Position numbers and translations under genes: made by a program | The notes under the pieces: model-generated | The model's input: the letters and a program-made list of their open reading frames with translations, nothing else | What the model was told of the DNA's origin: nothing | Database searches by the model: none | Shown here: positions 20,296 to 50,599 of the stretch, in pieces | How the letters are laid out: the number at the start of each line of letters is the position of its first letter | Numbering within the stretch: the first letter of the stretch is position 1 | Assembly: GCA_043814605.1 (NCBI GenBank) | Contig: JBDRJV010000013.1 | Span: 34,471-98,470 of the forward strand | Reading direction: 5' to 3' | Source of the DNA: Candidatus Omnitrophota bacterium | GTDB taxonomy: Bacteria; Omnitrophota; Gorgyraeia; B26-G9 | Length of the DNA: 64,000 nt

Positions 20296-20796
20296 TTATT
20301 TATATATATCTAAAATTTGCACTCTCGTTGCTTCAAGCCGCTGAGTGATAACAGTAACAAACCTTTTTAATAAATGATATCCCAAGTCTGTATTTTTTTC
20401 ACATTTATCCCTGAGGCATTTTCCATCTAATGCAATCACGCGGGTATCTTCAAAGGCCCGCGCACTAAACCTATAGCGATGCGGAGGAACAAGCCACGAC
20501 CAGCCCAGGATATCTCCCTCACCAATAGTCTGGATTATAATTGAGGATGGCTTTGCGATATAAATTGCTACTTTACCATGCCGGATAAGATAAAAATTGT
20601 CTGCAGGCTCTCCCTCCTTAAGGATGATCTCTCCCTCTTTAAACCTAACATTAGAAGCACAACCTATTATAATATCAAGGTATTTTTTATCTAAATCTTT
20701 GAAAAAAGAATGCTCCTTCAAAATAGGTTCAAGTGTTTCCATATCTCCTCCTACTTGTTTTTCTTTAATTATACTCTTCTTAGATAACTTCTGCAA
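20296..20796 (-). CDS. Cyclic-nucleotide-binding domain protein (probable true start METLEP at ~20742 with AGGAGG RBS)
   Basis: cNMP-binding beta-barrel motifs FGEGDIL...RSA; strong SD before internal Met. Confidence 0.75.
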   Translation of the reverse strand: MQKLSKKSIIKEKQVGGDMETLEPILKEHSFFKDLDKKYLDIIIGCASNVRFKEGEIILKEGEPADNFYLIRHGKVAIYIAKPSSIIIQTIGEGDILGWSWLVPPHRYRFSARAFEDTRVIALDGKCLRDKCEKNTDLGYHLLKRFVTVITQRLEATRVQILDIYK

Positions 20797-20803
20797 ATAA
20801 AAA

Positions 20804-20830
20804 GGAGAATGCCCGTTCAGGATTTTCTCC
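20804..20830 (-). terminator. Intrinsic terminator (ggagaatgcccgttcaggattttctcc + T-run on minus strand)
   Basis: Hairpin followed by TTTTTATTT on minus strand. Confidence 0.6.
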
Positions 20831-20866
20831 TAATTCTCACGAACCTTTAGTTCGTAAGTACAATAT

Positions 20867-20990
20867 TGGCTCACTGTGTTGGACGAGTTTCACCCTAAGA
20901 AATTGCTAAGCATTTTCAGGGACTAAAGTCCTGGGAATCCAGAGAATTCCACAGGGGCATTTTTTTCAAGAAAAAAAACAATCCTGATTC
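20867..20990 (-). repeat. Repeat unit: TGGCTCAC + three-hairpin module X (copy of 30640..30745)
   Basis: gaaattgctaagcattttcagggactaaagtcctgggaatccagagaattccacagggg ~90% identical to 30648-30706. Confidence 0.8.
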
Positions 20991-20999
20991 CTTTTCTTA

Positions 21000-21713
21000 T
21001 TAACTTGCCCGTCCTAACGTCTTGAACCAGATTCTATTCTTTCCCGTCATCTTAGCTTTATACATCGCCTGATCTGCTTCTTTTACAAATTCTTCAATTG
21101 TCTGCCCTGTTTGATATTCGGCAATGCCAATACTAACTGTTTTGTGCACATAGTATTCTGGGTTTACTTTAGCTTGCGGATAGAATTTCATTGTTTCGAT
21201 TTGTTTACGGATCCTTTCCGCTGGCGTTATAGCAAAATGTACAGCTGTCTCAAGTAATAATATGGTAAATTCTTCTCCGCCGATTCTAAAAGCGTAATCA
21301 GTTTTTCTTAAGTTGCTGGTAAAAATATCTGCCAGTTTTATAAGCACTATATCTCCAGCTCCATGCCCATATTTGTCGTTATAATTCTTAAAATTATCTA
21401 CATCAATATACAAAAGCGACATTGAACGTTCATACCTCTGGCATCGGGGGCATTCCATATTAAGATATTCATAAAAAACGCGGCGGTTATATAATTGGGT
21501 GAGAACATCTGTTCTGCTTAATTTTTCTAATTCTACATTTTTTCTTTCTAATTCCTTATACAGTAATTTAATCCCTTCATTTGTTTTCTTTGTTGCCCAC
21601 ATTTGATCATTAAGTTCCTGCTGGAGCTCATTTATTTGCTGCTGAAGAATTCTATTTTGTCCCATAAGATCAATTTGTTTTTCTTGATCTTTATTGTTTC
21701 CACCTCCAGCCAT
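21000..21713 (-). CDS. GGDEF diguanylate cyclase with N-terminal coiled coil
   Basis: RRVF, DVDNFKNYNDKYGH, RIGGEEFTIL. Confidence 0.8.
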   Translation of the reverse strand: MAGGGNNKDQEKQIDLMGQNRILQQQINELQQELNDQMWATKKTNEGIKLLYKELERKNVELEKLSRTDVLTQLYNRRVFYEYLNMECPRCQRYERSMSLLYIDVDNFKNYNDKYGHGAGDIVLIKLADIFTSNLRKTDYAFRIGGEEFTILLLETAVHFAITPAERIRKQIETMKFYPQAKVNPEYYVHKTVSIGIAEYQTGQTIEEFVKEADQAMYKAKMTGKNRIWFKTLGRAS

Positions 21714-21737
21714 TATATAGATCTCCCTTTTAAAATT

Positions 21738-22097
21738 CTATCCAATAAGCTTTTTTACCGCAAGTACAATCTCTGAACAATCGCTAGTTTTTGCGCAATA
21801 ATCATCTGCTCCGGCTTTTCTTGCCTGTAAAGCATCAAAGGCATCTATTGACCCTGTCATCATAATAACTTTTGGTATTGTTTCTTGTTGCCAGGATTTA
21901 ATTAAACTACAAACTCCAAAACCGTCAATCCCTGGTAATATTGTATCTAAAATAACTACGATCGGTGCTTCAGCCTTAGCTTTTTCTAACGCCTCTTCTC
22001 CTGTTGCCGCAGTTAAAACATCATATTCTTTTTCAAAATTATCTTCTAATATTCTCAAGATTGTGGGGCTATCTTCAACAATAAGAATTTTTTTCAT
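21738..22097 (-). CDS. Response-regulator receiver domain protein (CheY-like)
   Basis: ILIVEDSPTILRIL...ILDTILPGIDGF...K. Confidence 0.85.
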   Translation of the reverse strand: MKKILIVEDSPTILRILEDNFEKEYDVLTAATGEEALEKAKAEAPIVVILDTILPGIDGFGVCSLIKSWQQETIPKVIMMTGSIDAFDALQARKAGADDYCAKTSDCSEIVLAVKKLIG

Positions 22098-22398
22098 ATT
22101 TACCTTTTTCCTATATAAAATGGGTTAGCGCAGCAGGCCTTTGTGCTTATTATTTAAATGATACTATCTAGGTTAGAGTTAGTCAATACTAAATAGCTGC
22201 CTTTCTTCTATTTGTTGCAGTCATGTTTTGCCACAACACCTGGCAAAACAGATGTCCCTTAATAATTGCTGTCCGGACTTCTGCCTAACTTATCCCGTAA
22301 AAGGCGGGAAAAAACCGCGGGACAGGTCATCAACCACATAAGAATCCTCATAACTTTTACTGTGTAGGCTCTTTTGTTTACCCGCTAGTTTTTTTTAA

Positions 22399-22950
22399 CT
22401 ACTGTTTTCTTTTTTCAGCTTTTGCGGATTTTACTGACTTTGATTTTTTTGTAGATTTTGCAGGTTTTACTACCTTTGGCTTTTTTACAGCTTTTACAAT
22501 TTTAACTGATTTTGGCTTTTTAGAAAGCTGAACATTTATTGGTGTTTCTACTTTAGGATTGTCAATTACAAGCGGTTTAAAACTGTTTTTATTTCTGCGT
22601 CTTGCAAAACATTGTTTGCAATATACCTGACGATCGCCCTTTGGCTTGAACGGAACCTCACAGTCCATACCACAATCTGCGCAAACTGCTTTATACATCG
22701 GCCTGTTTTCCCTTGCCGGTTTCGGCCTAGGCAAAGGAATTACCGGCGGTATCGGCGGCTTAAGGACAGCAACAGGTTGCGGCGGGATACGGCTAAGAAC
22801 CGTATCTAACTTTGCTTCAAAAGAAGTGAGCTTCTGTACCAACACCGTAAGCAGGCTAACAATATCCTGTTTAGCAGATGTTGATATTGAAGGTTTTTTC
22901 GGCTTTATACTTTTACTAATAACAGTTTTCTTTTTCGTGCGTTTTTTCAT
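22399..22950 (-). CDS. Lysine-rich (histone H1-like tail) protein with central zinc ribbon
   Basis: CADCGMDCEVPF...YCKQCF; C-terminal KPKSVKIVKAVKKPKVVKPAKSTKKSK. Confidence 0.5.
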   Translation of the reverse strand: MKKRTKKKTVISKSIKPKKPSISTSAKQDIVSLLTVLVQKLTSFEAKLDTVLSRIPPQPVAVLKPPIPPVIPLPRPKPARENRPMYKAVCADCGMDCEVPFKPKGDRQVYCKQCFARRRNKNSFKPLVIDNPKVETPINVQLSKKPKSVKIVKAVKKPKVVKPAKSTKKSKSVKSAKAEKRKQ

Positions 22951-23158
22951 TCTGTCTCCTTTTTTAATTTTTTTTGTTTAAAAAATGAAAAAATTAAATT
23001 TATATTATTATTATAAAATAAAATGGGGCTCACTGCAATCGACTTATAGCGTTTACAGTGAAACTTGTATGGTTAACTGGCTCCTCGCGCAGGCAGATGC
23101 ACATAAATACTATTGTGATTGGGTAAACTTTGTATTTACTTGAGAAAAATGTAACCTC

Positions 23159-24430
23159 TTAGGATTTACTGGGTTTTACTGGTTGAGGGATTATATTCCC
23201 AATGAAAAATTCATCCACTAGATGCCCGAATTTTAGATAAATTTTATCGTTATTTATTTTTAGAATTGTATATTCATTAACTGTTTGTCCGGGGCGATAA
23301 GGCTTACCAGAAATCATCACAAAAGGATCTTCCTGATCGTACATGATACCTTCAATTTTTTCTTGATGAGTAAATGTCAGCAAAGCTGATGATTTATAAT
23401 CTAAAGGGTTTTTTAGCACTTCGTAATAAAACCGTAATCTGGGATATACCGGATTATTTTTATCGCAATATTTTAAAGCCTTTCGTAAAGGCTCTTTTGC
23501 TTGGCTGTACTCACGAATATTCATATAAGCAATCCCTATGTTGACATGGGCTCCCCAGTGTTTTCTTTCAAGTTCTAATGCTTTTTTTGCATAAGCAATT
23601 GATTCTCGAAAATCTCGCACGTCTTTATTACTAACATACACGGGGATACCTTTTTCCATATAACATTCACTCAAGAAGTAATACAAATCCGCCTGCAGCT
23701 TTTTAGTTGGTTCTCGTTCAAGAAGGGATTGAAATACCATAATTGCCTGATCATATCTGCCAATATTATAATATTTTTCTCCCCTATTCACCAAAGCCAT
23801 CTCCTCAGCTGATGTAAAATAGTTTTTAGTATCGTCGCTGTTTTCCTCCTGTGAAAGCCTCTTAACTTCTTCTAAATTAATACTATCTAAAAAAGCATTC
23901 ACCCCTCCATCCCCTTGGAGCTTGGCAAAACTTTCTTTTGTCCCCGCAACATAACATTCAATTAATCGAGGGCTTTTATCTTCCTTGGCCACATATTGTC
24001 TGATTTTAAGGGAAACTTTTTTCCCCTGATAAGAGATGCTATCTTCAGTTTCTAATAGATGCCAATTAAACATTTTTGTCGAGAACGTCATTATCTTTTT
24101 TGTTTCGTATCTCTGCTTCTGTTTAGCCTTTTGTTTATCCCTAAGCCAGGCCATAGCACTTTTTCTCGGAACATAGAGGGTTCTTAAATATATCTCAAAC
24201 AATCCCCCCTGATTTTGAAAACGAAAAGCATAATCATAGGTATAATCATCCTGACTTTCAATCCTTTCCCAATGTACCGGCTTTTTAAAAGTCAGCTTTT
24301 TAAGTGAGGTTATGTCGTACTGTACTGCACAGGAAATCAGGCTGCCAGTAAAAATAATAATTACAAATATGAATAATATTCTTTTCATTGATTTATCCTT
24401 AAAAGAAATTCTTAAAAAAAATTGTAGCAT
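23159..24430 (-). CDS. TPR-repeat protein with N-terminal signal/anchor
   Basis: TPR-like repeats (YNIGRYDQAIMVFQSLLE, ..NIGIAYMNIREYSQAKEPLRKAL). Confidence 0.6.
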   Translation of the reverse strand: MLQFFLRISFKDKSMKRILFIFVIIIFTGSLISCAVQYDITSLKKLTFKKPVHWERIESQDDYTYDYAFRFQNQGGLFEIYLRTLYVPRKSAMAWLRDKQKAKQKQRYETKKIMTFSTKMFNWHLLETEDSISYQGKKVSLKIRQYVAKEDKSPRLIECYVAGTKESFAKLQGDGGVNAFLDSINLEEVKRLSQEENSDDTKNYFTSAEEMALVNRGEKYYNIGRYDQAIMVFQSLLEREPTKKLQADLYYFLSECYMEKGIPVYVSNKDVRDFRESIAYAKKALELERKHWGAHVNIGIAYMNIREYSQAKEPLRKALKYCDKNNPVYPRLRFYYEVLKNPLDYKSSALLTFTHQEKIEGIMYDQEDPFVMISGKPYRPGQTVNEYTILKINNDKIYLKFGHLVDEFFIGNIIPQPVKPSKS

Positions 24431-24491
24431 CTAAGAGCTCTTCTTGTCAATAAAACAAAAGAGTAGGTAGGGAAAATATACAAAGAACTAA

Positions 24492-24701
24492 CTATGTTGC
24501 GCTTGAAATAGCATTGTATTTACATGCTGTTATACAGGCACCGCAATCAATACATTTGTCTGAATAAAAAACCACGGTATTCTTTCTTTCTAAAGCACCA
24601 GCTGGACAGACCTCAACACATCCCTCGCATGTTCCGCTACAACTACAAGTAGTACATTTGCCATCTTTAAAACAACATTTGTCATAGTCAATAACAATCA
24701 T
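24492..24701 (-). CDS. 4Fe-4S ferredoxin
   Basis: CTTCSCSGTCEGCVEVCP and CIDCGACITAC. Confidence 0.8.
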   Translation of the reverse strand: MIVIDYDKCCFKDGKCTTCSCSGTCEGCVEVCPAGALERKNTVVFYSDKCIDCGACITACKYNAISSAT

Positions 24702-24993
24702 TTTAACGTTCCTCTTTACTATATATTATTGCATTCCAAAATAAAACCAGCTATAAGTATTTACTATTTTATCAACATATCCTCATTTTATTGTAGCTAT
24801 TCATCACAGTCAATATAATCTTCTTTTCTTTTTTCTTTTACTATGCTGCTTTATTGTACTGTTTCAGGGAGTTCTACTACGGGAAAATACATAAAAAAAG
24901 CATGGTAACTTTTTATTTAAAAAGCCCAACATCTAAAGACGCTGGGCTTTTTAAAAACTTTCGGAAGATACTTATATCATAAAAATTCTAAAA

Positions 24994-27186
<2,193 letters not shown>

Positions 27187-27196
27187 TTACCCCCAT

Positions 27197-27889
27197 TTAT
27201 TTTAATTTAAGCGGTTTAAAACAAATAAACCAATCCAGGCATTTTATACCTTCTTTTTTTGCGCCATCAACGCGCTCTTTGGCCGAACCGCAGCTCCCCG
27301 GAGGAGGCACAATAACATCATCGCCTGGCTGCCAATCTGCCGGAGTCGCGACATTGTACTTTTCTGCTGTTTGCATCGCAATCAACATGCGCTTGATCTC
27401 CTGAAAATTACGCCCGGTTGATGATGGATAATACATTAATGCACGCACTTTTGCTTGAGGATCAATAAGAAATACCGCTCTTACCGCACTCGAAATACTT
27501 GCCTGCGGCTACACCATACCAAACTTTTTTGCGACATCCATAGTTAAATCGGCAATCACAGGAAAATTGACTTCAATGTTTTTCATTCCTTTATATTCAA
27601 TTTTTTCCTTTATGGTTCTTAGCCAGGCAATATGGCTGTAATGGCTATCGATTGATAGCCCGATAAGTTTACAATTTAATGCTTCAAATTCTTTCTCCAT
27701 CGAAGCAAAGGTCATAAACTCAGTTGTGCAAACAGGCGTAAAATCCGCCGGATGGCTGAAAAGTATTACCCATTTTCCTTTATAATCTTCCGGAAACTTG
27801 ATATGGCCTTGTGTTGTATCTGCCTCAAAAGCAGGGGCAAGCTCACCAATAACCGGCATGTGTGTTCTCTCGCAGCAATTTTGTTCCAT
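27197..27889 (-). pseudogene. Peroxiredoxin (Prx6/1-Cys-like AhpC/TSA) interrupted by in-frame TAG at 27509..27511
   Basis: N-part has FTPVCTTEF; C-part RAVFLIDPQAKVRALMYYPSSTGRNFQEI...ATPADWQPGD; the two ORFs are in the same frame separated only by TAG. Confidence 0.6.
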
Positions 27890-27909
27890 AACTTTCTCCT
27901 TCCTTATTA

Positions 27910-28215
27910 TTATTTTTTCATTTTGGCTATTTCTTCTTCAACTTCTCCGGCGCCTTCATCATAGAACTTCTGCTCATCCGGAGCTAATTCTTTCAATAGT
28001 CTTAAAAATTCTCCGGCATGCACTCTCTCCTCATCTGCAATATCTTGTAATACTTCCTGCGCAAGTTTATTATCAGTTGATTCTGCCAGCTGCATATAAA
28101 GCTGAATCGCTTCATATTCTGCGGCAACCATAAAGCGGATCGCGCGAACCAACTCTGTTTTGCTGATTTTTTTCTCTTTTGCTATCCCTGAAAAAGGTGA
28201 TCCAAATTCCGGCAT
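27910..28215 (-). CDS. Small ferritin-like/rubrerythrin-family diiron protein
   Basis: EYEAIQLY...DEERVHAGEF (E..H motifs). Confidence 0.5.
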   Translation of the reverse strand: MPEFGSPFSGIAKEKKISKTELVRAIRFMVAAEYEAIQLYMQLAESTDNKLAQEVLQDIADEERVHAGEFLRLLKELAPDEQKFYDEGAGEVEEEIAKMKK

Positions 28216-28335
28216 AATTGCCTCCTTTCTTTAAATAAGCGCATGACTTACGGAGCGTTTTAGGATACGTCAAGTCAACCTGCGCGAATTTAGTCCGAAA
28301 TGGCTGCGGCTTAGCAGACATTTTCGTAATCATTA

Positions 28336-28764
28336 TTACCTGCATTTTTCACAGATAAATTCTAATATTACTCGTTTATGCAGTACGTTATATTTCTTTT
28401 CGATACTGCGGGGGATTTTTAAATCATCAAATTCTTTATTATCAAAATCAATAATTTTGCCACATTTTATACAACTTAGATGATGATGATTTTCTATAAA
28501 AGGATCAAATCTTTTTTGTCGGTTATAGCTTTCAGCTATTTTAATAATACCGATATCCGCATAAGACAATAAAGTTCTGTTGACAGTATCAAATGAAATA
28601 TTAGGAAAATTTATTTTTATCTTTTTATAAACATCATCAGCAGAAGGATGCGTTAGATCATCTTTTAATGCTTCATATATCGCTATCCTCTGAGGAGTAA
28701 TGCGTAAATTATTTTCCTTACACCTTAGCTTAAAAACATCAATAGAATTATTTTGCTTATTCAT
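28336..28764 (-). CDS. Fur-family regulator, PerR-like by context (ORF track start 28800 is a TTG inside the -35; ATG at 28764 preferred)
   Basis: QRIAIYEAL...HHHLSCIKCGKI...CEKC; sits upstream of rbr-like/prx/katG. Confidence 0.8.
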   Translation of the reverse strand: MNKQNNSIDVFKLRCKENNLRITPQRIAIYEALKDDLTHPSADDVYKKIKINFPNISFDTVNRTLLSYADIGIIKIAESYNRQKRFDPFIENHHHLSCIKCGKIIDFDNKEFDDLKIPRSIEKKYNVLHKRVILEFICEKCR

Positions 28765-28768
28765 ATTT

Positions 28769-28784
28769 ATTACTATATAGTAAT
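28769..28784. promoter_or_regulatory. Perfect 16-bp palindrome ATTACTATATAGTAAT overlapping -10 of the PerR-like gene promoter (TTGACA-N17-TATAGT)
   Basis: Seen directly; PerR/Fur boxes are AT-rich 7-1-7 palindromes. Confidence 0.5.
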
Positions 28785-28925
28785 TATTCCTATTTGTCAA
28801 GTTGTTTTTACAAATAAAAAACCGTCCGGGTCTCCTCCCTGACGGTCTTAAGTCCTAATTAAATTCTACTCTTCAAAAAGTAACAGGTCAAGAAAAATGA
28901 ATTACCCCCCCCTCCTTTCATAATA

Positions 28926-28959
28926 AAAACCCCCTCACATTTCTGTGAGAGGTTTTTTA
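28926..28959. terminator. Bidirectional intrinsic terminator (aaaaaccccctcacatttctgtgagaggtttttt); identical copies at 33876..33910 and (degraded) 38896..38930
   Basis: 7-bp GC stem flanked by A-run and T-run. Confidence 0.7.
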
Positions 28960-28964
28960 TTATT

Positions 28965-29035
28965 GGCTCCCCGTATTACCTGTCCCCAGCGCTTGATTTG
29001 TAAGCAAATCAGCAGGGGGGACGAGTTTCGCAACT
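28965..29035 (-). repeat. Module Y: TGGCTCCCCGTATTACC + long hairpin (gtcccc-agcgcttgatttg-taa-gcaaatcagc-aggggggac) + gagtttcgcaac; copy at 38935..39010, variant at 30531..30640
   Basis: Near-identical 75-nt sequences at the two loci. Confidence 0.8.
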
Positions 29036-29113
29036 TTTTGGATGAGTTTAGGCAGTGGTGCTTGAGTGAGGAAGCGAGCAGGTTACATAAAGAACTGACT
29101 ATTGCGTAAAATG

Positions 29114-29644
29114 TTATAATTTTATCGCTTTCTTTATCTTATAATTCTTTTTTGTTAAATAATTTCCTAATGCTATCGAAGTTATAATAACCAAAGGCAA
29201 AGATATCAATAGCCTTATTGCTGTAAATTTGAGCCCGACAAAAGACGCTTCAAATACTGTCATCGGTACCCTTGTAATGGCGGATGCTCCGAGAAACGTA
29301 AAAATAACGCTTAACTTTGCGCCTTTGTTGTATAAAGCGTGTGCTATGGGCAAAGCCACATATAAACCGCCGATCATAGTCCCGGCAAGAAGTATAACCC
29401 AAAAATACCCCTTAACGCCTGAATCATCGCCTAAATGCTTTTCAACCGTTTCTTTCTTTACCCACACCTCAAACAACCCAATAAGAACAAACGCAAAAGG
29501 CAATACCTTAAACATATCTATAGCGAAAGATAAAAAATTCCGCCCGATCTCTTTCCCCGGGGCAAAACCAAAAGAAAACGAAATGATTAAAAACAAAAAG
29601 TAAGCACTGATCACAATATTTTTTATGGCATTCTCTTTTTTCAT
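29114..29644 (-). CDS. Membrane permease component (likely starts MKKENAI at 29644)
   Basis: Multi-TM; overlaps upstream gene by ATGA. Confidence 0.45.
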   Translation of the reverse strand: MKKENAIKNIVISAYFLFLIISFSFGFAPGKEIGRNFLSFAIDMFKVLPFAFVLIGLFEVWVKKETVEKHLGDDSGVKGYFWVILLAGTMIGGLYVALPIAHALYNKGAKLSVIFTFLGASAITRVPMTVFEASFVGLKFTAIRLLISLPLVIITSIALGNYLTKKNYKIKKAIKL

Positions 29645-30132
29645 CAGAAAATCTCCCCGAAAAAAATACCGGTCGCCAATGCCACGAGCAATGCGATACC
29701 AAAGCTGATCACATTTCGCATAACAGTCACCTTTAATCCGAAATATTCTTTCTCTATCGGATATGTGAGCACCCCAATCATCATCAAAGTAGTGGTAAAA
29801 GCAGACAAAACCATATAAGAAACTCCTTGTTTCAATAAAATTCCACACAAGGGGAAAACTATGAATCCAGGCACCAGCGTTATAGAGCCAAAAAAAGAGG
29901 CAAAAAGAACACCACGTAATTGGCTACCATCCCCCAGATAACTTAAAAGAACTTTATTAGGAAAAACAAAAAGAACGATTGAGGTAAGAATGAGCATCAT
30001 TAAGAAAGCAGGAAAAATATTTACAAATTTCCTAAAAGCTATTTTAGCCGCTTTAAGCGTTTTCTCGCGACTTGTAATAAAGGAAACCAGCACTATTAAC
30101 CCTGTTATTGCATATAACCCTAATATCCTCAA
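29644..30132 (-). CDS. Membrane permease component (paired with 29114..29644)
   Basis: Multi-TM 162 aa. Confidence 0.45.
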   Translation of the reverse strand: MRILGLYAITGLIVLVSFITSREKTLKAAKIAFRKFVNIFPAFLMMLILTSIVLFVFPNKVLLSYLGDGSQLRGVLFASFFGSITLVPGFIVFPLCGILLKQGVSYMVLSAFTTTLMMIGVLTYPIEKEYFGLKVTVMRNVISFGIALLVALATGIFFGEIF

Positions 30133-30449
30133 AATGTCACAACCTTATCGCTCTCCTTAACAATATAATACATATCTTTCATTGTAGAAATAGGACACAT
30201 TTCAGAACTTTCCTGCTCTCTTGATTTAATACAACTACCGCAGGCATATATTTTCCCGCCAGATTCTATCAGTTTCTCTGCCTGTTCAACTGTGTTAAAC
30301 TTCTCCGTGCCTATTTTTTGATATTCAACCCCCTTACCCATAAAGAAAACCTTAACGTCATCTTTTTGGGACAAGCAAAAATTAGCATATCGCAAAGCAT
30401 TCCAACAAGTCTCAACATCATTGCTTGAAATTATAACACCTATTTTCAT
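30129..30449 (-). CDS. DsrE/DsrF-like (sulfur-relay-like) small protein
   Basis: ~106 aa, MKIGVIISS...KVFFMGKGV...YACGSC. Confidence 0.5.
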   Translation of the reverse strand: MKIGVIISSNDVETCWNALRYANFCLSQKDDVKVFFMGKGVEYQKIGTEKFNTVEQAEKLIESGGKIYACGSCIKSREQESSEMCPISTMKDMYYIVKESDKVVTF

Positions 30450-30485
30450 TGTTCGCCCCTCCTTTTAATGCATTATATCCCAAAC

Positions 30486-30527
30486 AAAAACCCCTTGCAA
30501 CTGAATAAGCCACAAGGGGTTCAAAAA
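30486..30527. terminator. Intrinsic terminator (aaaaaccccttgcaactgaataagccacaaggggttcaaaaa)
   Basis: ccccttg...caagggg stem with flanking A/T runs. Confidence 0.6.
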
Positions 30528-30530
30528 TAC

Positions 30531-30745
30531 TGGCTCCCTGTATTATCTGTCCCCAGCGCTTGATTTGCCTTCCTTTTCCTGTATTAAATTTTATTTATGC
30601 AAAATTTGCAGGAGTCAATCAGCCGGGGAGACTAGTTTCGCCCCTTGAAATTGCTAAGCAATTTCAGGGACTAACGTCCTGGGAATCCAGAGGATTCCAC
30701 AGGGTCAGTTTTTCAAGAAAAAAATAATCCTGACTTTTTATTGTA
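30531..30745 (-). repeat. Composite repeat: Y-module variant (loop insertion) fused to X-module
   Basis: tggctccctgtattatctgtccccagcgcttgatttg...aatcagccggggagactagtttcgcc + gaaattgctaagcaatttcagggactaacgtcctgggaatccagaggattccacaggg. Confidence 0.8.
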
Positions 30746-30816
30746 TCTACCAACAGAAACCATGCAGAAAAGCAGGGTAACTTGATCCAAAACTAAAAAT
30801 TAACAACTAATTCATA

Positions 30817-32778
30817 TTAAATAGCCTGTTCAAAAAACTGGTTTGATTGGAAATTGACAACCTTCGAAAAACTATTCAGTGGAATTTTATTATCCACAAA
30901 TAATTTTTCTAGATACTGCTGTGTATACTTAAGCATCTTTTCGGGGAATTTTTTTCTTCTTAATATCTGCAGAGTATTTGTCTCTTCCCATTTTAAAGAA
31001 CCTGGACGTAATTTATAATCGCGTATTGCTTCTCCATCTTGGGTTGATCCTTCCTTAAAGTGCATATTTTTAATATTTTTAATTTCATCAACTAAAGTTA
31101 TAATACTCAAATCCTGCGTAGCTACCAGTCCCAACACATTCTGTTCAGCAAGAAGCTTTATTGCTGCTTTCTGGGTAACTGTTCTGTTTGTCGGTTCTGT
31201 CCCTTCAAACATCTCATCCCCCACAAAAGCAAAAATTGTCTTTTTCCCCTGCATTGCAGCCATAATATGATCAAGCATACGGTCAGATTCAACATCAAAT
31301 TTACTCATATCCTCAGCCAAAGAATCTTCGGTATTAATATGAGTACGGATATATACAGGAGTAAAATCCATGTTTTCTGCTGTGACAGGACTTCCAATCT
31401 GAGCCATAACTAAAAGCAATGCATACATTTTTAAAATAGTTGTCTTCCCGTTCATGTTCGGACCAGTAATGGTTAAAAAACTAGTTTCATCAGGATCAAG
31501 AACAATAGAGTTTGGCTCGATTAATTGCCTTAAAACATGTAGGGGGTGTATCGCATTTTGAATATTAACGTAAGGATTATCCTGTTCTAGAACTTTAGGA
31601 AATATATTAATTTGATGGTCTACTGCATTCTGCGCTATTGCTGTATAAGCATCTAATTCTGCTACTGCCCCAAAAATTCGTTTAAATTCATCCTCTTTTT
31701 TATTAAGCAACCGGCTTAATCCCTCATAACTTCTATTCTTAATACAATCTACCAAGCTAAAAGCATGTTTTTTATCTCTTAAAGCACTTAAAGTTTCTAC
31801 AATCTCTTCTAACAAAGGTAATCCCTCTATTTGAGGATATTCTTTTAAAACTTTCTTAAGTAAATATGCTTTATCTGTAAAATTAAGTAGGGCTGATTTT
31901 GCGTCCTTCATCTCCATAAGCATAGGGAAAAAAACAAATATCGCAAACATGGATATTGCAAAAATAAATATGTTGATATGTAAAGATACTGCTAATATGC
32001 CTAAATAAACATACATTATTTTAACAAAACTCTTGATTGACGGCTTTTTCTTTAAAATATTAAAAGCATACTTATCATCTGTATTTTTTAAAATTTCATT
32101 TAATGATTGCCGCAGTTCTTCATTTTTTATCAAAAAAGCCACTACTTTTTGACGCTGTTTTATATGTTCTGTATCTAAAAAAGGATTGCATAATAACCGC
32201 TTAAACCGCAGATCTCCAAGATAAGTCTTTGTCCGGTTAAAATAATTATACAAAGAAAATTCTCCTTTACTGATTATCTCTAAATCTAAAATATCACGTA
32301 TACTTAAGGGATCATGTAAAAATTCTTTTCGGTAAACAATTCCGCCATTTTCAAGCGCAGGATAATCTTCTACTTGTGGTTTTTTGTACAAGGCGGTTTT
32401 TCCTTTTCCTTTATCAATCTTTAGAGGAGCTGGCATATGTTTCTCTAATTCGTTCTGTAAATCAATTTCTCCTTCTTTTTTGCGAAATTTATACCAAGTT
32501 GTACCCACCATAAACGCAAATATAAAAATAGATATATTAATCAATCCGAAAGTCATTATTTGCATAACTAATAATGCTATCGTGCCAGACGAAATAAAAG
32601 CAAATTTCAAATATAAAAATGATACAGAAACCATCATTAACCCAGGAATCAAAAAAAACCATTTCTTTTTCTTTTTTGTCTGAGTAATATGATCTTTTAA
32701 CTTTTTCTCAGCTCGAGCAATATCATTCATTTTTAATTCTGTAACTTCTTCAGCAGTTAACGCAAGTAATTTGTCCAT
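30817..32778 (-). CDS. MutS-related protein (MutS domain V ATPase) with N-terminal TM segments
   Basis: ITGPNMNGKTTILKMYALLLVMAQIGSPV Walker A; DE...Walker B. Confidence 0.75.
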   Translation of the reverse strand: MDKLLALTAEEVTELKMNDIARAEKKLKDHITQTKKKKKWFFLIPGLMMVSVSFLYLKFAFISSGTIALLVMQIMTFGLINISIFIFAFMVGTTWYKFRKKEGEIDLQNELEKHMPAPLKIDKGKGKTALYKKPQVEDYPALENGGIVYRKEFLHDPLSIRDILDLEIISKGEFSLYNYFNRTKTYLGDLRFKRLLCNPFLDTEHIKQRQKVVAFLIKNEELRQSLNEILKNTDDKYAFNILKKKPSIKSFVKIMYVYLGILAVSLHINIFIFAISMFAIFVFFPMLMEMKDAKSALLNFTDKAYLLKKVLKEYPQIEGLPLLEEIVETLSALRDKKHAFSLVDCIKNRSYEGLSRLLNKKEDEFKRIFGAVAELDAYTAIAQNAVDHQINIFPKVLEQDNPYVNIQNAIHPLHVLRQLIEPNSIVLDPDETSFLTITGPNMNGKTTILKMYALLLVMAQIGSPVTAENMDFTPVYIRTHINTEDSLAEDMSKFDVESDRMLDHIMAAMQGKKTIFAFVGDEMFEGTEPTNRTVTQKAAIKLLAEQNVLGLVATQDLSIITLVDEIKNIKNMHFKEGSTQDGEAIRDYKLRPGSLKWEETNTLQILRRKKFPEKMLKYTQQYLEKLFVDNKIPLNSFSKVVNFQSNQFFEQAI

Positions 32779-33313
32779 ACTGGGATTAATTGCTGGCTTA
32801 TTTTTTCTTGAAGAAAAACTATCTCAATGGTTTGCTAAGAATTATTCTTTGGTTAATATCTATTACTACGGGGGAATCCATTCTGAAAAATCATTCTTTG
32901 ATTCTCACTCCGAATATAAAAACAATACCAGCTCTGTAAACCATTTTCTCCTCAAACAATACAGAAAAGATAAAGAAAGATTTTTCAAAAAATTAAAAAG
33001 CTATAATATTATTGTGAGACAAAAAGAAATCTGGAGTGTTTATGATAATACAAAAGGAACTTATAACCTAAAATGTAATTGTGATGTTGAACTAACAGTT
33101 GATGCTCTCGACAGAATTCAAGATTATCAACAAATAATTCTTTGTAGTGGAGACGGAGATTTTGCGAGATTAATACGCTACTTAAAAAATAAAGGTAAGA
33201 TTACAACCGTTTTATCAATAAAGCAAAGAACTTCTGGAATACTCAAAAAGGCTACAAATAACTTGATTTATCTTCATACGCTAAAACACTTAATCGAGTT
33301 TACCCGTCCTTAA
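32771..33313 (+). CDS. NYN-domain (LabA-like PIN-fold) protein, possibly N-terminally degenerate
   Basis: CDVELTVDALDRIQDYQQIILCSGDGDFARLIRYLKNKGKITTVLS matches NYN C-terminal half. Confidence 0.5.
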   Translation: MSILGLIAGLFFLEEKLSQWFAKNYSLVNIYYYGGIHSEKSFFDSHSEYKNNTSSVNHFLLKQYRKDKERFFKKLKSYNIIVRQKEIWSVYDNTKGTYNLKCNCDVELTVDALDRIQDYQQIILCSGDGDFARLIRYLKNKGKITTVLSIKQRTSGILKKATNNLIYLHTLKHLIEFTRP

Positions 33314-33711
33314 ACACAGAAAGCTCTACTTTCGTAGAGCCTCCGCATTCGCCATCACAAGATGGCTTTAGTCCTGTAATATAAGTATATCATAGTATAC
33401 TATTTAATTCAATTATGTCAATTAATTTTTTACTATGCTAACGACAATTATTATTTTACACTTGATTACAAATAGTTAATCCCCAAAAAGACAAGTTTCT
33501 CAACTAGTTGATAGCTATCAAATAAGATAATTTTGTGAAAACATTTAATTCTTCTGTTTATCTATAAATCCTTTCAGCAATTTTACTGAAGTAGCATAGA
33601 ATAGGACGAAATAGGGGACGTAGTTAGATAATTAGATATTAATTTCCCCGCCCCAATTTTCTTAACTTAATATATCTTAATAATACTCCTGAGATGGAGA
33701 GATTTCAAGAT

Positions 33712-33860
33712 TATTCTGATTCCCACTCGGACTCGGCGCCTCCGCCTACGCAGAAGCTCCGGCTCCGGTCGGCCAGTCAACCGCTGACAGCCGGTCTTCG
33801 ACTTACGGCCTTTTCCTCCCTTAGGTCGGCGCGGTCTCAATTCGAGTCCTCACAGCAGTG
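33712..33860. repeat. GC-rich ~145-bp repeat Z (copy of 42215..42357), ends with tRNA-Asn T-arm-like ttcgagtcctc
   Basis: cgctcggactcggcgcctccgcctacgcag...ggtcggcgcggtctcaattcgagtcctcacagca ~93% identical between copies. Confidence 0.8.
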
Positions 33861-34128
33861 AAAACCAAACAATAATAAAAAACCCCTCACATTTCTGTGA
33901 GAGGTTTTTTATTATTGGCTCCCCGTGCCCCCTAAAAGACCGAACTTTTCTGTGATTTTTTACGCAGGACTTACACTTTCACGACAAGGAAATAGGTTTA
34001 AGGTAGTCTTTCCAACCGAATAAGATTATGATTAAATGTAAATTTTTAAAAGGTTTTTATTGAAATTGCTTTCAGTAAGGTAGACATCCTTTCTGATGTC
34101 CTTTTATTTTTATACATAGATACGTCAT

Positions 34129-36999
34129 CTAACTCTGCTTATGCATGTCTATACCTTGCATAAGTTCATACGCTATATTTCCACTCACCAAACGCATAAT
34201 ACTTTCTTCCGAACTGCCAAAACTTAGTAAATTAATACTGCCATACCAAACAATCTTTTGATCTATAACCGCAAATTTCTGATGTATCTTCGGCCGGAAC
34301 ATGATAGTAATCCCGACAGCTTGAAGTACTTTGCATGCCTGTTGTGACGCTAATCTATTGTCTTCTTTTAACTCCTCGGCTGGTCTCGTTATTATTGTAA
34401 TTCCAACCTGTCTGGTTAAGGGATCAGAGAGATTTTGCATAATTTGATTAACCCGTCGCTGAGTAATAAAAGGACTCACAATTACAATTTCTTTTTTTGC
34501 ACTTATTAAGTCATTGCAATAAACAGGGAAAAATGAGCTCTTATCAAAAATAATATCAGTAGTTTGCCCAATACTTTCCCCTTGAGACTTATACCCGATA
34601 GCAGCATAACCAGTTAATCTTTTAGCATACATTTTCTCAAGCATTCTAACTCTGACATCAACATAATCGTAAATTTGAACATGTTTTTTAGTCTCATATA
34701 TTCTATGCAGTCTTCCCGCGTATTGATGCAAAGTTCCTTTCCATGAAATAGGCATAGCAAGAAACAATGTATCCAATCGAGGAGCATCAAACCCTTCTCC
34801 AATAAACGTACCTGTTGCAACTATGGTTAACTGCTTTTCCTGAGACATTGCGGCTATCCGCCTCAATAAGTCATTTGTTTCTTTAGCCCCTAAGCCCCCT
34901 CTCAATACGACAACATCAGGAATTTTCATTGCCAATTTTTTTGCCAGCAGTTCCACATGTGCTGTCCGTCCTGTAAGTACCACGCAATTCCGGCCATTTT
35001 CATAACTATTAATCACATCATCAACAATCAATTGATTGCGCATTTCATCAACTGTCATCTCAGCGTATAATTCTTGAATAGATACTGTTGTATCATCAGA
35101 GGCCGCGATCCTGAAACCGGTGAATCGTGGGATAACGTAATGCTCGAAAGGCCTTTGTTCCGCTTGTTTTTTTGCGTCAACTTTATAACGGATCGGCCCG
35201 CAATGCATAAATAGTATAGGCTGGTGACCATCCTGTCTTGTAGGAGTTGCCGTTAAGCCATACACATATTTAGCGTTCACCTTTTTAAGTATCTGCTCAA
35301 AACTGAATGCCGGAATATGATGGCACTCATCAACAATGACCATTCCGTAGTTTTTGACAGTTTCCTTTACCTCTCCAGCATCATTTAGTGACTGCATTAT
35401 GGCAATATCAATAATACCCGACAGAGCATCTCTTCCTCCGCCCAATTGGCCAATAACACTTTGTTTTTTCTTTCTCCCTCTCTTTTTTTCTGGAACAGGT
35501 AATTTTTCATCAATGATTAAGAACTCCAGCAACCGGACAATCCATTGTAATAATAACTGATGGCGATGAACTAAAATAAGCGTGTTTACTTTTCGCTCGG
35601 CAATCAGCTTAGCGGCAATAACTGTTTTACCAAACGCTGTCGTTGCGGAAAGAATCCCGTTATTGAATTTCAGGAGCTCATCAACTGCTTGCTGTTGCTC
35701 TTCCTTTAAGACTCCTTTGAATTTAACCTTAATATCCTTTCCGCGATTAGTCTGATCATCCCAACACATTTCCACAGCATACTCATTAAGTAAAACATTA
35801 ATATCCTCCTCGCAACCTCTCGGCAAACACAAATAATTATTCTTATCTTCAAAACATGAGATTACTCGCGGTTTATTATAGGTAGGCATTCTCATTGCTT
35901 GAGCTTTGTAAAATTCCGGATTTCTAAAAGCAGATAACCTTTTCAAAGCATTTAAGGCGCGCGAAGAAAATCCCTCTTTATTAATATACAGCATGTCTGC
36001 TTTTACAATAACCGTCTGCTTAGGATGGCCTGCTTTGGTCAATCTGATCCTGTTTTTCAACCACGGCTTTTCTTCATCTTCAGCTTCTCTAAGCACGCCC
36101 AATTCATTACCCGCGCAAAGTTTACTTATGAATGATTCTACGGTATCTCCTGAGAGCTTCTTTATCAAGGACAAAAATCCCCATTGATCTTCATAGGGGT
36201 TAAATTTCTCATCAATAAAAATACTGTGACCGGCTTTCCTGGCATCCAGTTGAAGTGGAAGTGCGATTAAATTTCCCATACCGCCTTTCGGCATTGTATC
36301 TTGATTTGGGAAAAACCTGTCATATGATGCAAAGGCTATTTCATGGCGTTTATTCATCGCATAGGTGATCACTGCGCTGCCAAATTTTCTGGCCAGTGCT
36401 GCAGGCAGGCACTCTTCAAAAAGAAACCACACATGCGCGCCATTTCCTGATCGTGAACGTTCTACCGCCATGGGAATATTGAATTCTCGACAAACTTCTC
36501 TTACTACCGAAACATCCTTCTCCCATCCGGTATCATCAAAATCAATCACCAGAAAATAACAATTTTCATCTGGAAGCAGCGGATAAATGCCGATAACCAG
36601 ACCGCCTCGCAAATGATTTTCAATGGCCTGCGCATCTAATTGTGCGTACAATTTATATTCACAATCTGCACACCTGGTCTTTGGTTTACCACATATTACT
36701 CTTTGCCATTCATTCAAACAGACCGGAGAATATCCTGACCTTCCCGCTTTATTCTGCCAGCGCTTAGCATATACATCATCACGGCCTCTAAATAAACTGC
36801 GAAATAACTGTATTTTTTCATTATTTGATAGCTGTTGAGAAATCAAAGGATTTTTTACAATAGTTGGCGAAGTAGGGGGCAGGCTTGATAGCTTTTTAAT
36901 AAGCTTATGTTTCTTTTCTTTTAACGATGAAATCTGAGTATCAATATCATTTATTTCATTTACAATATTCTTCTTGATATCGTCATAACTATAATTCAT
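34129..36999 (-). CDS. Three-domain fusion: N-terminal AEP primase-polymerase (PrimPol)-like domain + SF2 helicase (ResIII/DEAH) + C-terminal PLD-family nuclease
   Basis: AEP motif I LVIDFDD, motif II SGNGAHVWFLF, Zn-finger C..C...C..C; helicase Walker A ATTAFGKTV and VIVDECHH; PLD HxK motif KIHQKFAVID..GSINL. Confidence 0.65.
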   Translation of the reverse strand: MNYSYDDIKKNIVNEINDIDTQISSLKEKKHKLIKKLSSLPPTSPTIVKNPLISQQLSNNEKIQLFRSLFRGRDDVYAKRWQNKAGRSGYSPVCLNEWQRVICGKPKTRCADCEYKLYAQLDAQAIENHLRGGLVIGIYPLLPDENCYFLVIDFDDTGWEKDVSVVREVCREFNIPMAVERSRSGNGAHVWFLFEECLPAALARKFGSAVITYAMNKRHEIAFASYDRFFPNQDTMPKGGMGNLIALPLQLDARKAGHSIFIDEKFNPYEDQWGFLSLIKKLSGDTVESFISKLCAGNELGVLREAEDEEKPWLKNRIRLTKAGHPKQTVIVKADMLYINKEGFSSRALNALKRLSAFRNPEFYKAQAMRMPTYNKPRVISCFEDKNNYLCLPRGCEEDINVLLNEYAVEMCWDDQTNRGKDIKVKFKGVLKEEQQQAVDELLKFNNGILSATTAFGKTVIAAKLIAERKVNTLILVHRHQLLLQWIVRLLEFLIIDEKLPVPEKKRGRKKKQSVIGQLGGGRDALSGIIDIAIMQSLNDAGEVKETVKNYGMVIVDECHHIPAFSFEQILKKVNAKYVYGLTATPTRQDGHQPILFMHCGPIRYKVDAKKQAEQRPFEHYVIPRFTGFRIAASDDTTVSIQELYAEMTVDEMRNQLIVDDVINSYENGRNCVVLTGRTAHVELLAKKLAMKIPDVVVLRGGLGAKETNDLLRRIAAMSQEKQLTIVATGTFIGEGFDAPRLDTLFLAMPISWKGTLHQYAGRLHRIYETKKHVQIYDYVDVRVRMLEKMYAKRLTGYAAIGYKSQGESIGQTTDIIFDKSSFFPVYCNDLISAKKEIVIVSPFITQRRVNQIMQNLSDPLTRQVGITIITRPAEELKEDNRLASQQACKVLQAVGITIMFRPKIHQKFAVIDQKIVWYGSINLLSFGSSEESIMRLVSGNIAYELMQGIDMHKQS

Positions 37000-37008
37000 A
37001 ATTTAAAG

Positions 37009-38454
37009 TTAAAGGACTTCCCAATACCCGCCTTTTGCCGGGCCGATGCGCTTTAATAATTTTGCCTTCTTTAGTTTGGCAATAGCATTTTCTACTGTCC
37101 TTTGGGATAAGTTGGTTGCACCAGCTATTTCATGTGTTTTGATGAAATAGTTTTTCTGAATACATCGCAAAACTTTCTCCGCATTTTCTCCGCATTTTCT
37201 CCGTATTTCCACCGTAATTTTTAACTCTTTTCCCGCAACCTTTTTAACAGGCTTATCTTGTGGTTTATCTTTTTTCTCCAAATAAAATGTTATCTTATAA
37301 TAGTCAAAATCTCCTTCGACTTTAGGTTTTCCTTCATAATAAGCAGCCCAGCCCTTAAACATCTTATGAAAGCCTGAGCCGATATTCTCGGAAAGTTTTA
37401 TTGTCCTAAAAATCCTTGCGATGGTATTGTTTCTCGGCATGGAGAATTCTTCTTTTAAGATATACTTTATGTCCTTAGGTAATGAGCCCGGATTGAAAAA
37501 CTCTATCCTGTTGGAAAGAATTCTTATTCTCGGTTTGGCATTTGAAAAATAATCAGTGTGCATAAGAAGATTAACAAGAGCTTCGCGGATAGCTATAAAC
37601 TGCGGCGGATTCTCATCCCGAGACATTCCTTTAAGCTTAAATGGAATATTAATATGTTTTTTTAATTTTTCAAGAATTGAAAAATAATACTCATACAAAT
37701 TCTTTTGAACAGGCATACGATATTCATATCGGTTATCCGCATCAGAAAAAGAAGTGCCCGACACCTCAAGATATTCCACCCTGAAATCTGAAGCTGCCGC
37801 ATTTACGATTTCTTCTGTGCCAAAAACAAGCGCTCCTCCCACAGTTACTTTGCCCTTTATAATGATCCTCATAAGCTCAAGCATTTTCTCTGCCGAAACA
37901 TCATTATATCGGTGCTCGGGGTCAACCGATTCCAAATATGTCCTGTATCGGGAAATAGTTTCTTTATCAAGATCTTTAAATCTATACCCGGTAAGTTCTT
38001 CATCTTTTTTATCAAAAGAAGAATTCCTGTATAATGCATCTATCTCTTCTTTCGTTGCCCGCTGATCGCCGCTGCCTGTACGAACAAACGTGTTTGCAAG
38101 AGAGTTGAAATAAATTGGCTTGTCTTTGGAATACACAGAAGGAATACGAAAAGCCAATATTGTATTCCCTGCAATTGAATATTTCTTGGACTCAACTGTT
38201 ATTTTTTTATTAAATTTATCGCCTCTTAACGTGGTAAGAAAATCCTGCTCTATTTTTTCCGGATTATTAACTCCAACAACAGAATATTCCTTGCCTTTCT
38301 TTGCTATGCCAAAAATCAGCCAGCCTCCGGCTGTATTGCAAAAAGCGCTTACTGTTTCCCATGCGTTTTTAGGAATAGCAGATTTGGCCTCCTTTACCTC
38401 AAAGTCCTGCCATTCAATATCCTGCAACCTCTTAATCAATTCCTGTTTTTTCAT
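37009..38454 (-). CDS. Schlafen/AlbA_2 (divergent AAA-4) DNA-binding domain + HATPase_c_4-like + C-terminal wHTH transcriptional regulator
   Basis: FEVKEAKSAIPKN...NTAGGWLIFGI; C-terminal RTVENAIAKLKKAKLLKRIGPAKGGYWEV. Confidence 0.6.
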   Translation of the reverse strand: MKKQELIKRLQDIEWQDFEVKEAKSAIPKNAWETVSAFCNTAGGWLIFGIAKKGKEYSVVGVNNPEKIEQDFLTTLRGDKFNKKITVESKKYSIAGNTILAFRIPSVYSKDKPIYFNSLANTFVRTGSGDQRATKEEIDALYRNSSFDKKDEELTGYRFKDLDKETISRYRTYLESVDPEHRYNDVSAEKMLELMRIIIKGKVTVGGALVFGTEEIVNAAASDFRVEYLEVSGTSFSDADNRYEYRMPVQKNLYEYYFSILEKLKKHINIPFKLKGMSRDENPPQFIAIREALVNLLMHTDYFSNAKPRIRILSNRIEFFNPGSLPKDIKYILKEEFSMPRNNTIARIFRTIKLSENIGSGFHKMFKGWAAYYEGKPKVEGDFDYYKITFYLEKKDKPQDKPVKKVAGKELKITVEIRRKCGENAEKVLRCIQKNYFIKTHEIAGATNLSQRTVENAIAKLKKAKLLKRIGPAKGGYWEVL

Positions 38455-38606
38455 AATTAATCAATCTTAATCCTATGTATTAATAAACTTTTCTGCGGCT
38501 TTTACCTGTGCCTGAAATGGATATCCATGATAAAATTTTATCATCAACTTAAAAAAGATTCAATTTATTTCATCTAAAAACGCAACAATAGCAAATAGAT
38601 ATGATT

Positions 38607-38825
38607 TTACTCTTCGCTATGCTTTTTATTTTTATTCTTTTCATCTTCGCTTTCTTTTTCCTTTTTGCTTTTAAAATAAAGATATGCCCCTTTGGCGAGC
38701 AGTTCGCCAATTCTATTGATCCGTTCATCTATTGTTAAACAAAAATATTTATTCATCACAACCCCTGTAAAATCATATTTGTTTAAAAAGTTCGAATTTT
38801 CATCGACTCCCTCAATTGCCCTCAA
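38607..38825 (-). CDS. Small hypothetical protein
   Basis: ORF only. Confidence 0.2.
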   Translation of the reverse strand: MRAIEGVDENSNFLNKYDFTGVVMNKYFCLTIDERINRIGELLAKGAYLYFKSKKEKESEDEKNKNKKHSEE

Positions 38826-39161
38826 TATCCGAACTTTTTATATCTCTTCCCAAATGCACATTATAACTCATTATATTACAGCAAGTAAGCATAAATAAAA
38901 AGCCCCTCCCATTTCTGTGAGAGGTTTATTATTTTGGCTCCCCGTATTACCTGTCCCCAGCGCTTGATTTGTAAGCAAATCAGCATGGGGGACGGACGAG
39001 TTTCGCAACTGGATACAACTGAATAAAATACCGCAAGAGATAAACTGCCTCTAGATTATAAGAATGGCAAATGAACTGGAAAAATTAAATATAATTCGAC
39101 TCTGAGCGAAGTGATTAAGCATTATTGTCGACAAAGAATTTTGAAAATGAAAAATGAAAAT

Positions 39162-50557: not shown

Positions 50558-50599
50558 AAAAAAAAATCGGGAGTCCGTTTTGGACTCCCGTATTTTTTT
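50558..50599 (-). terminator. Intrinsic terminator immediately after tRNA-Asn CCA
   Basis: aaaaaaaaa-cgggagtcc-gtttt-ggactcccg-tattttttt. Confidence 0.8.

Follow-up and report, generated by a model that had tools for sequence, protein, structure and literature searches.

We report that the window (the whole 64-kb stretch of DNA analysed here, taken from a metagenome-assembled genome (MAG) of a Candidatus Omnitrophota bacterium, GCA_043814605.1) carries two small intergenic modules, X and Y, that are very probably genuine conserved RNA. As far as seen, they represent a structured RNA family that is absent from Rfam 15 and occurs only in Omnitrophota and relatives. The locus joins this family with recombination scars at a tRNA-Asn integration hot spot. 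Units are read on the minus strand. For the units as a whole, we put forward, with about as much doubt as confidence, the reading that they are a family of cis-acting leader or attenuator RNAs which has been duplicated and reshuffled at a GGAGCCA junction.

The case for a conserved RNA is built mainly on module X. The original prediction had drawn X as three consecutive hairpins; here the 68 nucleotides (nt) of the module form two extended ones, and RNAalifold independently gives the same two. A BLAST comparison of the window with the recR neighbourhoods of relatives (given below by numbers such as L002) showed that X occurs in GCA_004196255.1. A metagenome scan with the X core then returned three exact matches in that MAG, each on its own contig, and another copy on a Joint Genome Institute (JGI) contig, and a covariance model added one copy in GCA_043812175.1, whose cyclic nucleotide (cNMP)-binding protein is 87% identical to that of the window, the highest value among the relatives' loci fetched. 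The total is seven copies in five lineages (two in the window, three in GCA_004196255.1, and one each in GCA_043812175.1 and the JGI contig); a search of the window and 14 loci with the X model gave no additional copies.

In the hairpins of these seven copies, 97.5% of the alignment cells are paired and five pairs show compensatory changes, for example GGAAUCC/GGAUUCC, GAAAUAC/GUAUUUC, GAAAUGU/ACAUUUC, and GGAAUUC/GAAUUCC. Not one of 500 shuffles matched the covariation score or the cell count, two of 500 matched the five compensatory pairs, and controls with slid partners collapse. An RNA on the minus (this) strand is favoured, because one U-G pair is invariant in all seven copies and the other G-U pairs are scattered. 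The linker CCAGGACUUUAGUCCCUGAAAU is invariant save at two positions (one G in the second window copy and a one-base deletion in L014), and the X core is unchanged across genera whose RecR proteins are only 68-77% identical. Against this it must be set that only five lineages contribute and that the pair counts come from an alignment fitted to the model; the covariation support for X is good but not overwhelming. No Rfam 15 family was matched on X or Y in the window, at the gathering score or at E<=10, nor on the GC-rich repeats described below, and no Rfam match was obtained in loci L010, L012, L013, and L014. Likenesses to hammerhead, twister, and ZTP RNAs noticed by eye were dropped, as no Rfam model scores. 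A literature search found no earlier description of such an Omnitrophota RNA motif.

Module Y is a long irregular hairpin of three helices (C3-4/G3-4, a GC helix of 2-4 base pairs, and GAUUUG/CAAAUC). A third module is a basal stem, GCGAAACUCGU / UAAUACGGGGAG, whose conserved strands GCGAAACUCGU and UAAUAYGGGGAG are able to pair as CUCGU/ACGGG. In both L008 and L012, X sits inside the Y helices, so that two hairpins crown a long stem (fold z-scores of -6.1 and -6.4), and L012 has a compensatory change in a Y helix (GUUUUG/CAAAAC for GAUUUG/CAAAUC). In the window the Y helices are closed by a CUUA tetraloop (Y1 and Y3) or by an insert (Y2), with X placed in tandem on their 5' side. The modules are found in several orders: Y around X in two other lineages, X before a basal stem with Y or another insert inside it (this genome and its closest relative), and Y or the basal stem alone. 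Basal-stem flanks recur at three places in relatives. The element at L014:683, which precedes the orthologous cNMP gene (with 90% identity to the window in the 70 nt leading up to its ATG), ends in GGGGAGACA plus a terminator; the one at L014:3720/3780 comes after X and ends in GGGGACAUAGAGG, which serves a spermine-synthase-like gene as ribosome-binding site; and L008:52 is a minimal element without Y that ends in GGGGAGCUCA. A genome-collection scan with the 3' core of Y gave a sole match, by chance, inside a coding sequence of a high-GC Leptonemataceae MAG, and a metagenome scan with a Y 21-mer plus two viral scans returned nothing.

Six units sharing X or Y had been proposed in the window. 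All six were located at the predicted positions, all on the minus strand, but this common orientation carries little information because nearly all genes from 1 to 55 kb lie on that strand. Four of the units (at 20.9, 29.0, 30.6, and 39.0 kb) do share X or Y, whereas those at 33876-33924 and 42368-42403 do not. The features of these and one further unit are as follows.

20794-20866, minus strand: flank "F", two hairpins, the second an intrinsic terminator; 80% over 79 nt (BLAST) to L002 11672-11750 and its inverted copy
20867-20890, minus strand: basal-stem remnant without the Y hairpin, GAAACUCGUCC-AACACAGU-GAGCCA, laid out as in the minimal element L008:52
20891-20958, minus strand: X copy 1, two extended hairpins with slight degeneration (a single A-A mismatch); covariance model, 79 bits
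23040-23083, minus strand: further GCGAGGAGCCA plus hairpin unit, not in the earlier list; from the sequence
28920-28963, minus strand: intrinsic terminator Ta after Y1; unit z-score -6.1
28964-29034, minus strand: Y1, basal stem CUCGU/ACGGG around the Y hairpin, CUUA tetraloop, tail ending in UAAUACGGGGAGCCA; from sequence and fold
30488-30522, minus strand: intrinsic terminator after X-Y2, 38 nt before the DsrE start codon; from the sequence
30531-30641, minus strand: Y2, insertion of about 50 nt in the apical loop, tail ACAGGGAGCCA; from sequence, repeat finder, and fold
30639-30706, minus strand: X copy 2; covariance model, 88 bits
33870-33924, minus strand: bare 54/55 duplicate of the Y1 tail and terminator, upstream sequence unrelated to X or Y; repeat finder and alignment
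38896-38934, minus strand: terminator after Y3, 39/45 to Ta by alignment
38935-39009, minus strand: Y3, second tetraloop-closed Y copy, 93% identical to Y1; repeat finder and fold
42367-42592, minus strand: a different module ending in GGAAGCGGAGCCA plus a terminator; 88.5% over 200 nt to L002 and 77% to L009, in each case close to tRNA-Asn and a large serine recombinase gene of another genus

The window holds exactly two copies of X (by the covariance model) and three of Y, plus one stem-less remnant, "Y0" at 20867-20890, in which the Y hairpin is missing and GAAACUCGUCC runs directly into AACACAGUGAGCCA. According to the repeat finder, Y1 and Y3 are 93% identical over 70 nt and X1 and X2 85% over 95 nt, and the block of tail and terminator at 28920-28974 is 98% identical over 55 nt to that at 33872-33926, all far above chance. 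The sequence upstream of 33924 does not conceal a degenerate X, since alignment scores there equal those of shuffles. The insertion that had been noticed in the hairpin loop of one Y copy is indeed present, namely the approximately 50 nt in Y2, and in its minimum-free-energy fold the tail of this copy is paired to the X 5' flank (CCCUGU/ACAGGG). The statement that three units have an identical terminator was too strong: two agree at 43 of 45 positions, and the third matches those two at 38 and 39 of 45. The unit at 42367-42402 has only GGAGCCA in common with the others, and its terminator resembles that of tRNA-Asn (32/45). Units of GGAGCCA plus a hairpin also occur at 23083, 40324, and 50326, which the earlier list lacked. 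The hexamer GAGCCA by itself is not enriched in the window (31 matches to GRGCCA vs 37.8 expected); the distinctive signal is the set of 10 intergenic minus-strand copies, every one of them followed by a hairpin.

This shared ending had led to the suggestion of a small-RNA family with tRNA-like CCA ends. The first half of that suggestion, an RNA family, agrees with the compensatory changes and the strand-specific G-U pairs. The second half is not supported: no cloverleaf and no acceptor strand were found, and the CCA is not kept. That the units yield RNAs whose 3' end works like that of a tRNA and is acted on by CCA-adding or tRNA-processing enzymes, we consider extremely unlikely. Ten RNA-like modules of the window do end in GGAGCCA, and the module of the 42402 type retains it in three genera; but no 5' strand complementary to GGAGCCA that could complete an acceptor stem was seen by reading, and GGAGCCA has no pairing partner in the folds of Y1. 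The homologous tails at L014:683, L014:3780, and L008:52 are GGGGAGACA, GGGGACAUA, and GGGGAGCUCA, all without CCA; "CCA" is therefore not a feature of the X/Y family, and only ACGGGGAG is. ARAGORN found no tRNA, tmRNA, or cloverleaf in the window. It is important to note that the tRNA-Asn itself is invisible to this program because an intron splits it. The tRNA-Asn with which the units had been compared, and its terminator, are real, but the gene is in two pieces:

50568-50640, minus strand: 3' exon of tRNA-Asn(GUU) (50600-50640) and its terminator; from sequence and exon joining
51213-51247, minus strand: 5' exon of tRNA-Asn, with a group I intron carrying an HNH open reading frame (ORF) between the exons

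Joining 51247-51213 to 50640-50600 gives a tRNA-Asn(GUU) that ends in CGGGGGAGCCA and is followed by the terminator. The group I intron, at 50641-51212 on the minus strand, lies in the anticodon loop, has an Rfam match at 50649-50926 (72 bits), and contains an HNH endonuclease ORF at 50875-51192; it is also present in L009 and not in L002, L005, and L008.

The region headed by this tRNA gene bears the marks of recombination. The RecR proteins of the next relatives are at most 77% identical to that of the window. In one of them, L005, the order is NaCa-exchanger, dnaX, recR, membrane protein, tRNA-Asn, a flank of about 420 nt, and then fur and following genes, corresponding to 55.7 down to 8.7 kb of the window. 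Compared with L005, the window has an extra 8.6 kb between the tRNA and this ancestral flank and an extra 24.4 kb between the flank and fur, about 33 kb in total. The displaced flank and the recombinase genes of relatives are located as follows.

41766-41982, minus strand: ancestral 3' flank of the tRNA-Asn gene, displaced from it by 8.6 kb; 76% identity across 219 nt with L005 11684-11901, a segment immediately 3' of tRNA-Asn
L002 11569-13053, L008 14780-16261, L009 12102-13439, and L005 19221-20606: serine recombinase ORFs, antisense to the tRNA-Asn 3' end

The ancestral flank is adjoined by a decayed copy of the end of the tRNA (42010-41992). In L002, L008, and L009, the large serine recombinase genes end antisense over the 3' half of tRNA-Asn, and that of L005 ends across a 23-nt partial tRNA copy; the C-terminal residues of the enzymes, WLPREDS or GSPARTRTS, are encoded by the antisense strand of the tRNA or attachment (att) site. 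In the window, tblastn revealed a remnant of 30 C-terminal amino acids of the L002 recombinase at 20784-20873 (E 5e-7). Flank F, which follows X1-Y0 here, follows tRNA-Asn in L002 and, inverted, also a module of the 42402 type, and in L009 such a module closes the recombinase-bearing segment that begins at tRNA-Asn. When the junctions are tabulated, common downstream blocks stand behind unrelated upstream modules, and vice versa, at GGAGCCA.

These scars raise the question of whether all units are att relics left by serial integration of recombinase-borne islands at the tRNA-Asn 3' end, with X/Y being attP-arm DNA without an RNA function. Such an origin would agree with the tRNA-Asn at the head of the region, with the relatives' recombinase genes over its 3' end or a partial copy of it, with the module of the 42402 type at the far end of the recombinase segment in L009, with the displaced flank and the mosaic partners at GGAGCCA, with fragments of the tRNA T-arm in two repeats described below, and with the defence genes in the cargo. 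We nevertheless regard it as quite unlikely. Elsewhere, on different contigs and in different genomes, X/Y lies in the 5' untranslated regions (UTRs) of ordinary genes that have no tRNA near them, and this contradicts a pure att relic for X/Y. Moreover, the X/Y hairpins covary, with G-U pairs on one strand, the tails elsewhere lack CCA, and no recombinase lies in the window. The tRNA sequence shared at each unit amounts to 7-11 nt (9-10 nt of identity count against the relic view), and in X/Y units it is mostly ACGGGGAG, which belongs to the RNA family itself. The idea of decayed att-site footprints suits the unit at 42368-42403 and the region at large, but not X/Y. Integron attC sites were also rejected: the Y ends, by reading, misfit the RYYYAAC/GTTRRRY boxes, and no integrase is present.

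Several further features of the region were recorded. In L002, a 5.4-kb island with recombinase, HTH, and TIR genes lies between inverted repeats of at least 230 nt, each adjoining GAGCCA. A 240-nt GC-rich repeat at 50315-50553 and 40313-40544 (minus strand; 96-99% identical; fold z-score -5.6) holds a 12-nt fragment of the tRNA T-arm, CGAGUCCUCGCG, and ends in GGGGAGCCA plus a terminator; it has no Rfam match, and one copy lies directly after the tRNA-Asn terminator. A 138-nt GC-rich repeat at 33720-33857 and 42215-42352 (minus strand, 93%), right after two different terminators, opens with the reverse complement of the tRNA-Asn T-arm (GAGGACUCGAA), like an inverted att site or a relic of a recombinase end. 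The segment at 42403-42910 (minus strand), corresponding to L002 17083-17700, is about 0.5 kb of non-coding DNA with 55% GC in a genome of 35% GC and a fold z-score of -2.4; only its last 200 nt are kept in L002, at 88.5% vs about 69% for flanking core genes. A 55-nt intergenic repeat at 43562-43616, 45480-45534, and L002 17814-17866 agrees at 98% between the window and L002, although the L002 RecR is only 75% identical. The stretch 34129-50089 is dense in defence cargo, comprising AbiEi/AbiEii, a gene judged MazG-like by reading only, a fusion of a Schlafen-type helicase with peptidase S24, MNT/HEPN, Schlafen/AlbA_2, and a TOTE primase-helicase-PLD gene.

The position of the modules points to a role in the expression of the genes that follow. 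Each of the five X copies outside the window stops 10-90 nt short of a start codon on its own strand, and the RNA in these other genomes ends a few nt ahead of the ribosome-binding site. The genes 3' of them encode a 3'-phosphoadenosine 5'-phosphosulfate (PAPS) reductase with sulfite reductase (these two with an Rrf2 regulator gene upstream), a DUF2582 winged-helix protein, a cupin, an amidohydrolase, and a spermine-synthase-like protein; in L012, a consensus promoter, TTGACA-17-TATACT, lies about 45 nt upstream. In the window, X-Y2 stands ahead of DsrE and a two-part ArsP-type permease, with 80 nt from its end to the DsrE start; X1 ahead of the cNMP-binding protein and a flavodoxin-like reductase; Y1 ahead of PerR, followed by rubrerythrin-like, peroxiredoxin, and KatG genes; and Y3 ahead of a Schlafen/AlbA_2 regulator-like gene. 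An intrinsic terminator follows every window copy after 3-5 nt. Since the RNA ends before a ribosome-binding site elsewhere and a terminator follows it here, we infer that X/Y acts as a cis leader or attenuator, a mechanism that is read from position and to which we assign close to, and at most, an even chance. As a separate observation, the peroxiredoxin gene at 27197-27889 (minus strand) is apparently split into ORFs of 126 and 83 amino acids, by a frameshift, an in-frame stop, or an assembly error.

The same arrangement could be read differently, with the units as independent genes for trans-acting small RNAs, each having its own promoter and terminator, and the neighbours being transcribed from promoters of their own. 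The strong intrinsic terminator at the end of every window copy would fit such genes, as would the near-consensus promoter hexamers after three of the terminators (TTGCAA-17-TATAAT, TTGACC-17-TAGAAT, and TTTGCA-18-TATAAT) and the minimal element L008:52, which lies 3' of a gene and before a TTGACA promoter. However, outside this genome the RNA runs into a ribosome-binding site with no terminator, no convincing promoter was seen upstream of X1 or X2, and promoter-like matches occur near the chance rate, so that this alternative seems rather unlikely.

Regulation in cis and reshuffling at GGAGCCA also have to be weighed against a number of observations that tell the other way. CAAGGGG in X-Y2 is able to pair with the terminator arm CCCCUUG, as an antiterminator might, but the pairing energy is -14.7 vs -12.2 +/- 2.3 kcal/mol for shuffled sequences, 45 of 300 of which do equally well, and complementarity to the terminator arm in Y1 and Y3 is at the chance level. 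Y1 and Y3 have no X and lie roughly 130-450 nt from the next start codon. At three units, promoter-like hexamers stand between terminator and gene (in this AT-rich DNA 85 were found vs 65 expected). The downstream genes are heterogeneous and suggest no ligand, and the copies inside one genome are nearly identical, loops included, which speaks for recent duplication over independent selection. As for recombination, a domain scan of ORFs, reading, and tblastn with the recombinases of four relatives found no recombinase gene or remnant in the window besides that in F; and the extra 33 kb is partly housekeeping DNA (typA and the cNMP gene, which is widely conserved), so that insertion alone does not account for it and rearrangement was involved too.

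The near-identity of copies leads to another alternative, a mosaic family of intergenic repeats (BOX/REP/Correia-like) that would multiply through duplication and recombination and influence expression incidentally at most. The several module orders, the 85-95% identity among copies in one genome, the unrelated neighbour genes, and the differing content of the orthologous cNMP locus in close relatives are what such a family would produce. Its usual traits are missing, though: there are no terminal inverted repeats or target duplications, copies are few (three exact X-core matches in a whole MAG and two X copies in the 64 kb here), the X core is invariant across genera, and the position favours the 5' side of start codons. 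We judge this explanation clearly improbable. The more specific proposal of a MITE-like mobile terminator cassette found no support, as aligning the units end to end with their reverse complements scores the same as for shuffled controls, no duplication is seen in the flanks, and copies are few.

If the units are indeed leader RNAs, the X/Y leader, riboswitch-like or bound by a protein, would set the read-through into the next gene (DsrE/permease, the cNMP-binding protein, or PerR). In our reading, GGAGCCA is the junction at which upstream modules and downstream terminators were swapped in this genome, and the units at 33870-33924 and 42367-42402 are products of recombination and not members of the RNA family. 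A bolder extension, which we find doubtful, is that X/Y constitutes a new riboswitch or protein-responsive leader class of Omnitrophota, with interchangeable sensor domains (X nested in or beside Y) that control redox and sulfur genes (PAPS/sulfite reductase, DsrE, PerR, and a quinone-reductase operon); its G-rich tail would serve in addition as a secondary site of recombination for elements targeting tRNA-Asn, such that RNA copies seed the insertion of defence islands. A related observation comes from L015, where the orthologous cNMP gene is preceded (at 4530-4745) by a GC-rich element of a different kind, duplicated in tandem and followed by a hairpin and a UUCAUUUAAAGGAGG ribosome-binding block of the same kind as that after X in GCA_004196255.1. 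This suggests that the block is a shared "platform" serving different leaders.

Omnitrophota are uncultivated, so their gene regulation is known from sequence only, and X/Y offers a concrete handle on it and a candidate for ligand hunting. The locus also shows that a mosaic of terminators, RNA modules, and defence islands can arise from a tRNA-Asn hot spot of serine recombinases in combination with short G-rich RNA tails, and it illustrates that a "tRNA-like CCA end" seen in a single genome can be a local accident. Three known systems are useful for comparison. Like genomic islands at tRNA genes, the variable region is headed by tRNA-Asn, the relatives' recombinases adjoin the tRNA, the flank is displaced, the last 7-9 nt of the tRNA recur, and the cargo includes defence genes; unlike them, the relatives encode large serine recombinases with an ORF that runs across the att site, none lies in the window, the repeats cover only 7-11 nt of the tRNA, and X/Y is not derived from a tRNA and occurs without one elsewhere. 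BOX (boxA-B-C) and BIME/REP elements are likewise short intergenic stem-loop modules in varying order, co-oriented with genes and nearly identical within a genome, whereas X/Y has few copies, a core kept across genera with compensatory changes, no inverted ends, and no associated transposase seen in the window or the loci examined. The third comparison is with riboswitch leaders that have an intrinsic terminator, such as the S-box/SAM-I leaders. X/Y differs from them in having no Rfam match, no ligand or binding protein that can be named, and no antiterminator pairing above chance; some copies of the family lack X or lie 3' of genes, and the domain order varies by lineage. Yet it shares with these leaders a place in the sense-strand 5' UTR, a multi-helix fold with covarying stems and invariant joining nucleotides, a terminator (in this genome) or a ribosome-binding site (in others) directly after the structured part, and a distribution of few copies per genome before different operons.

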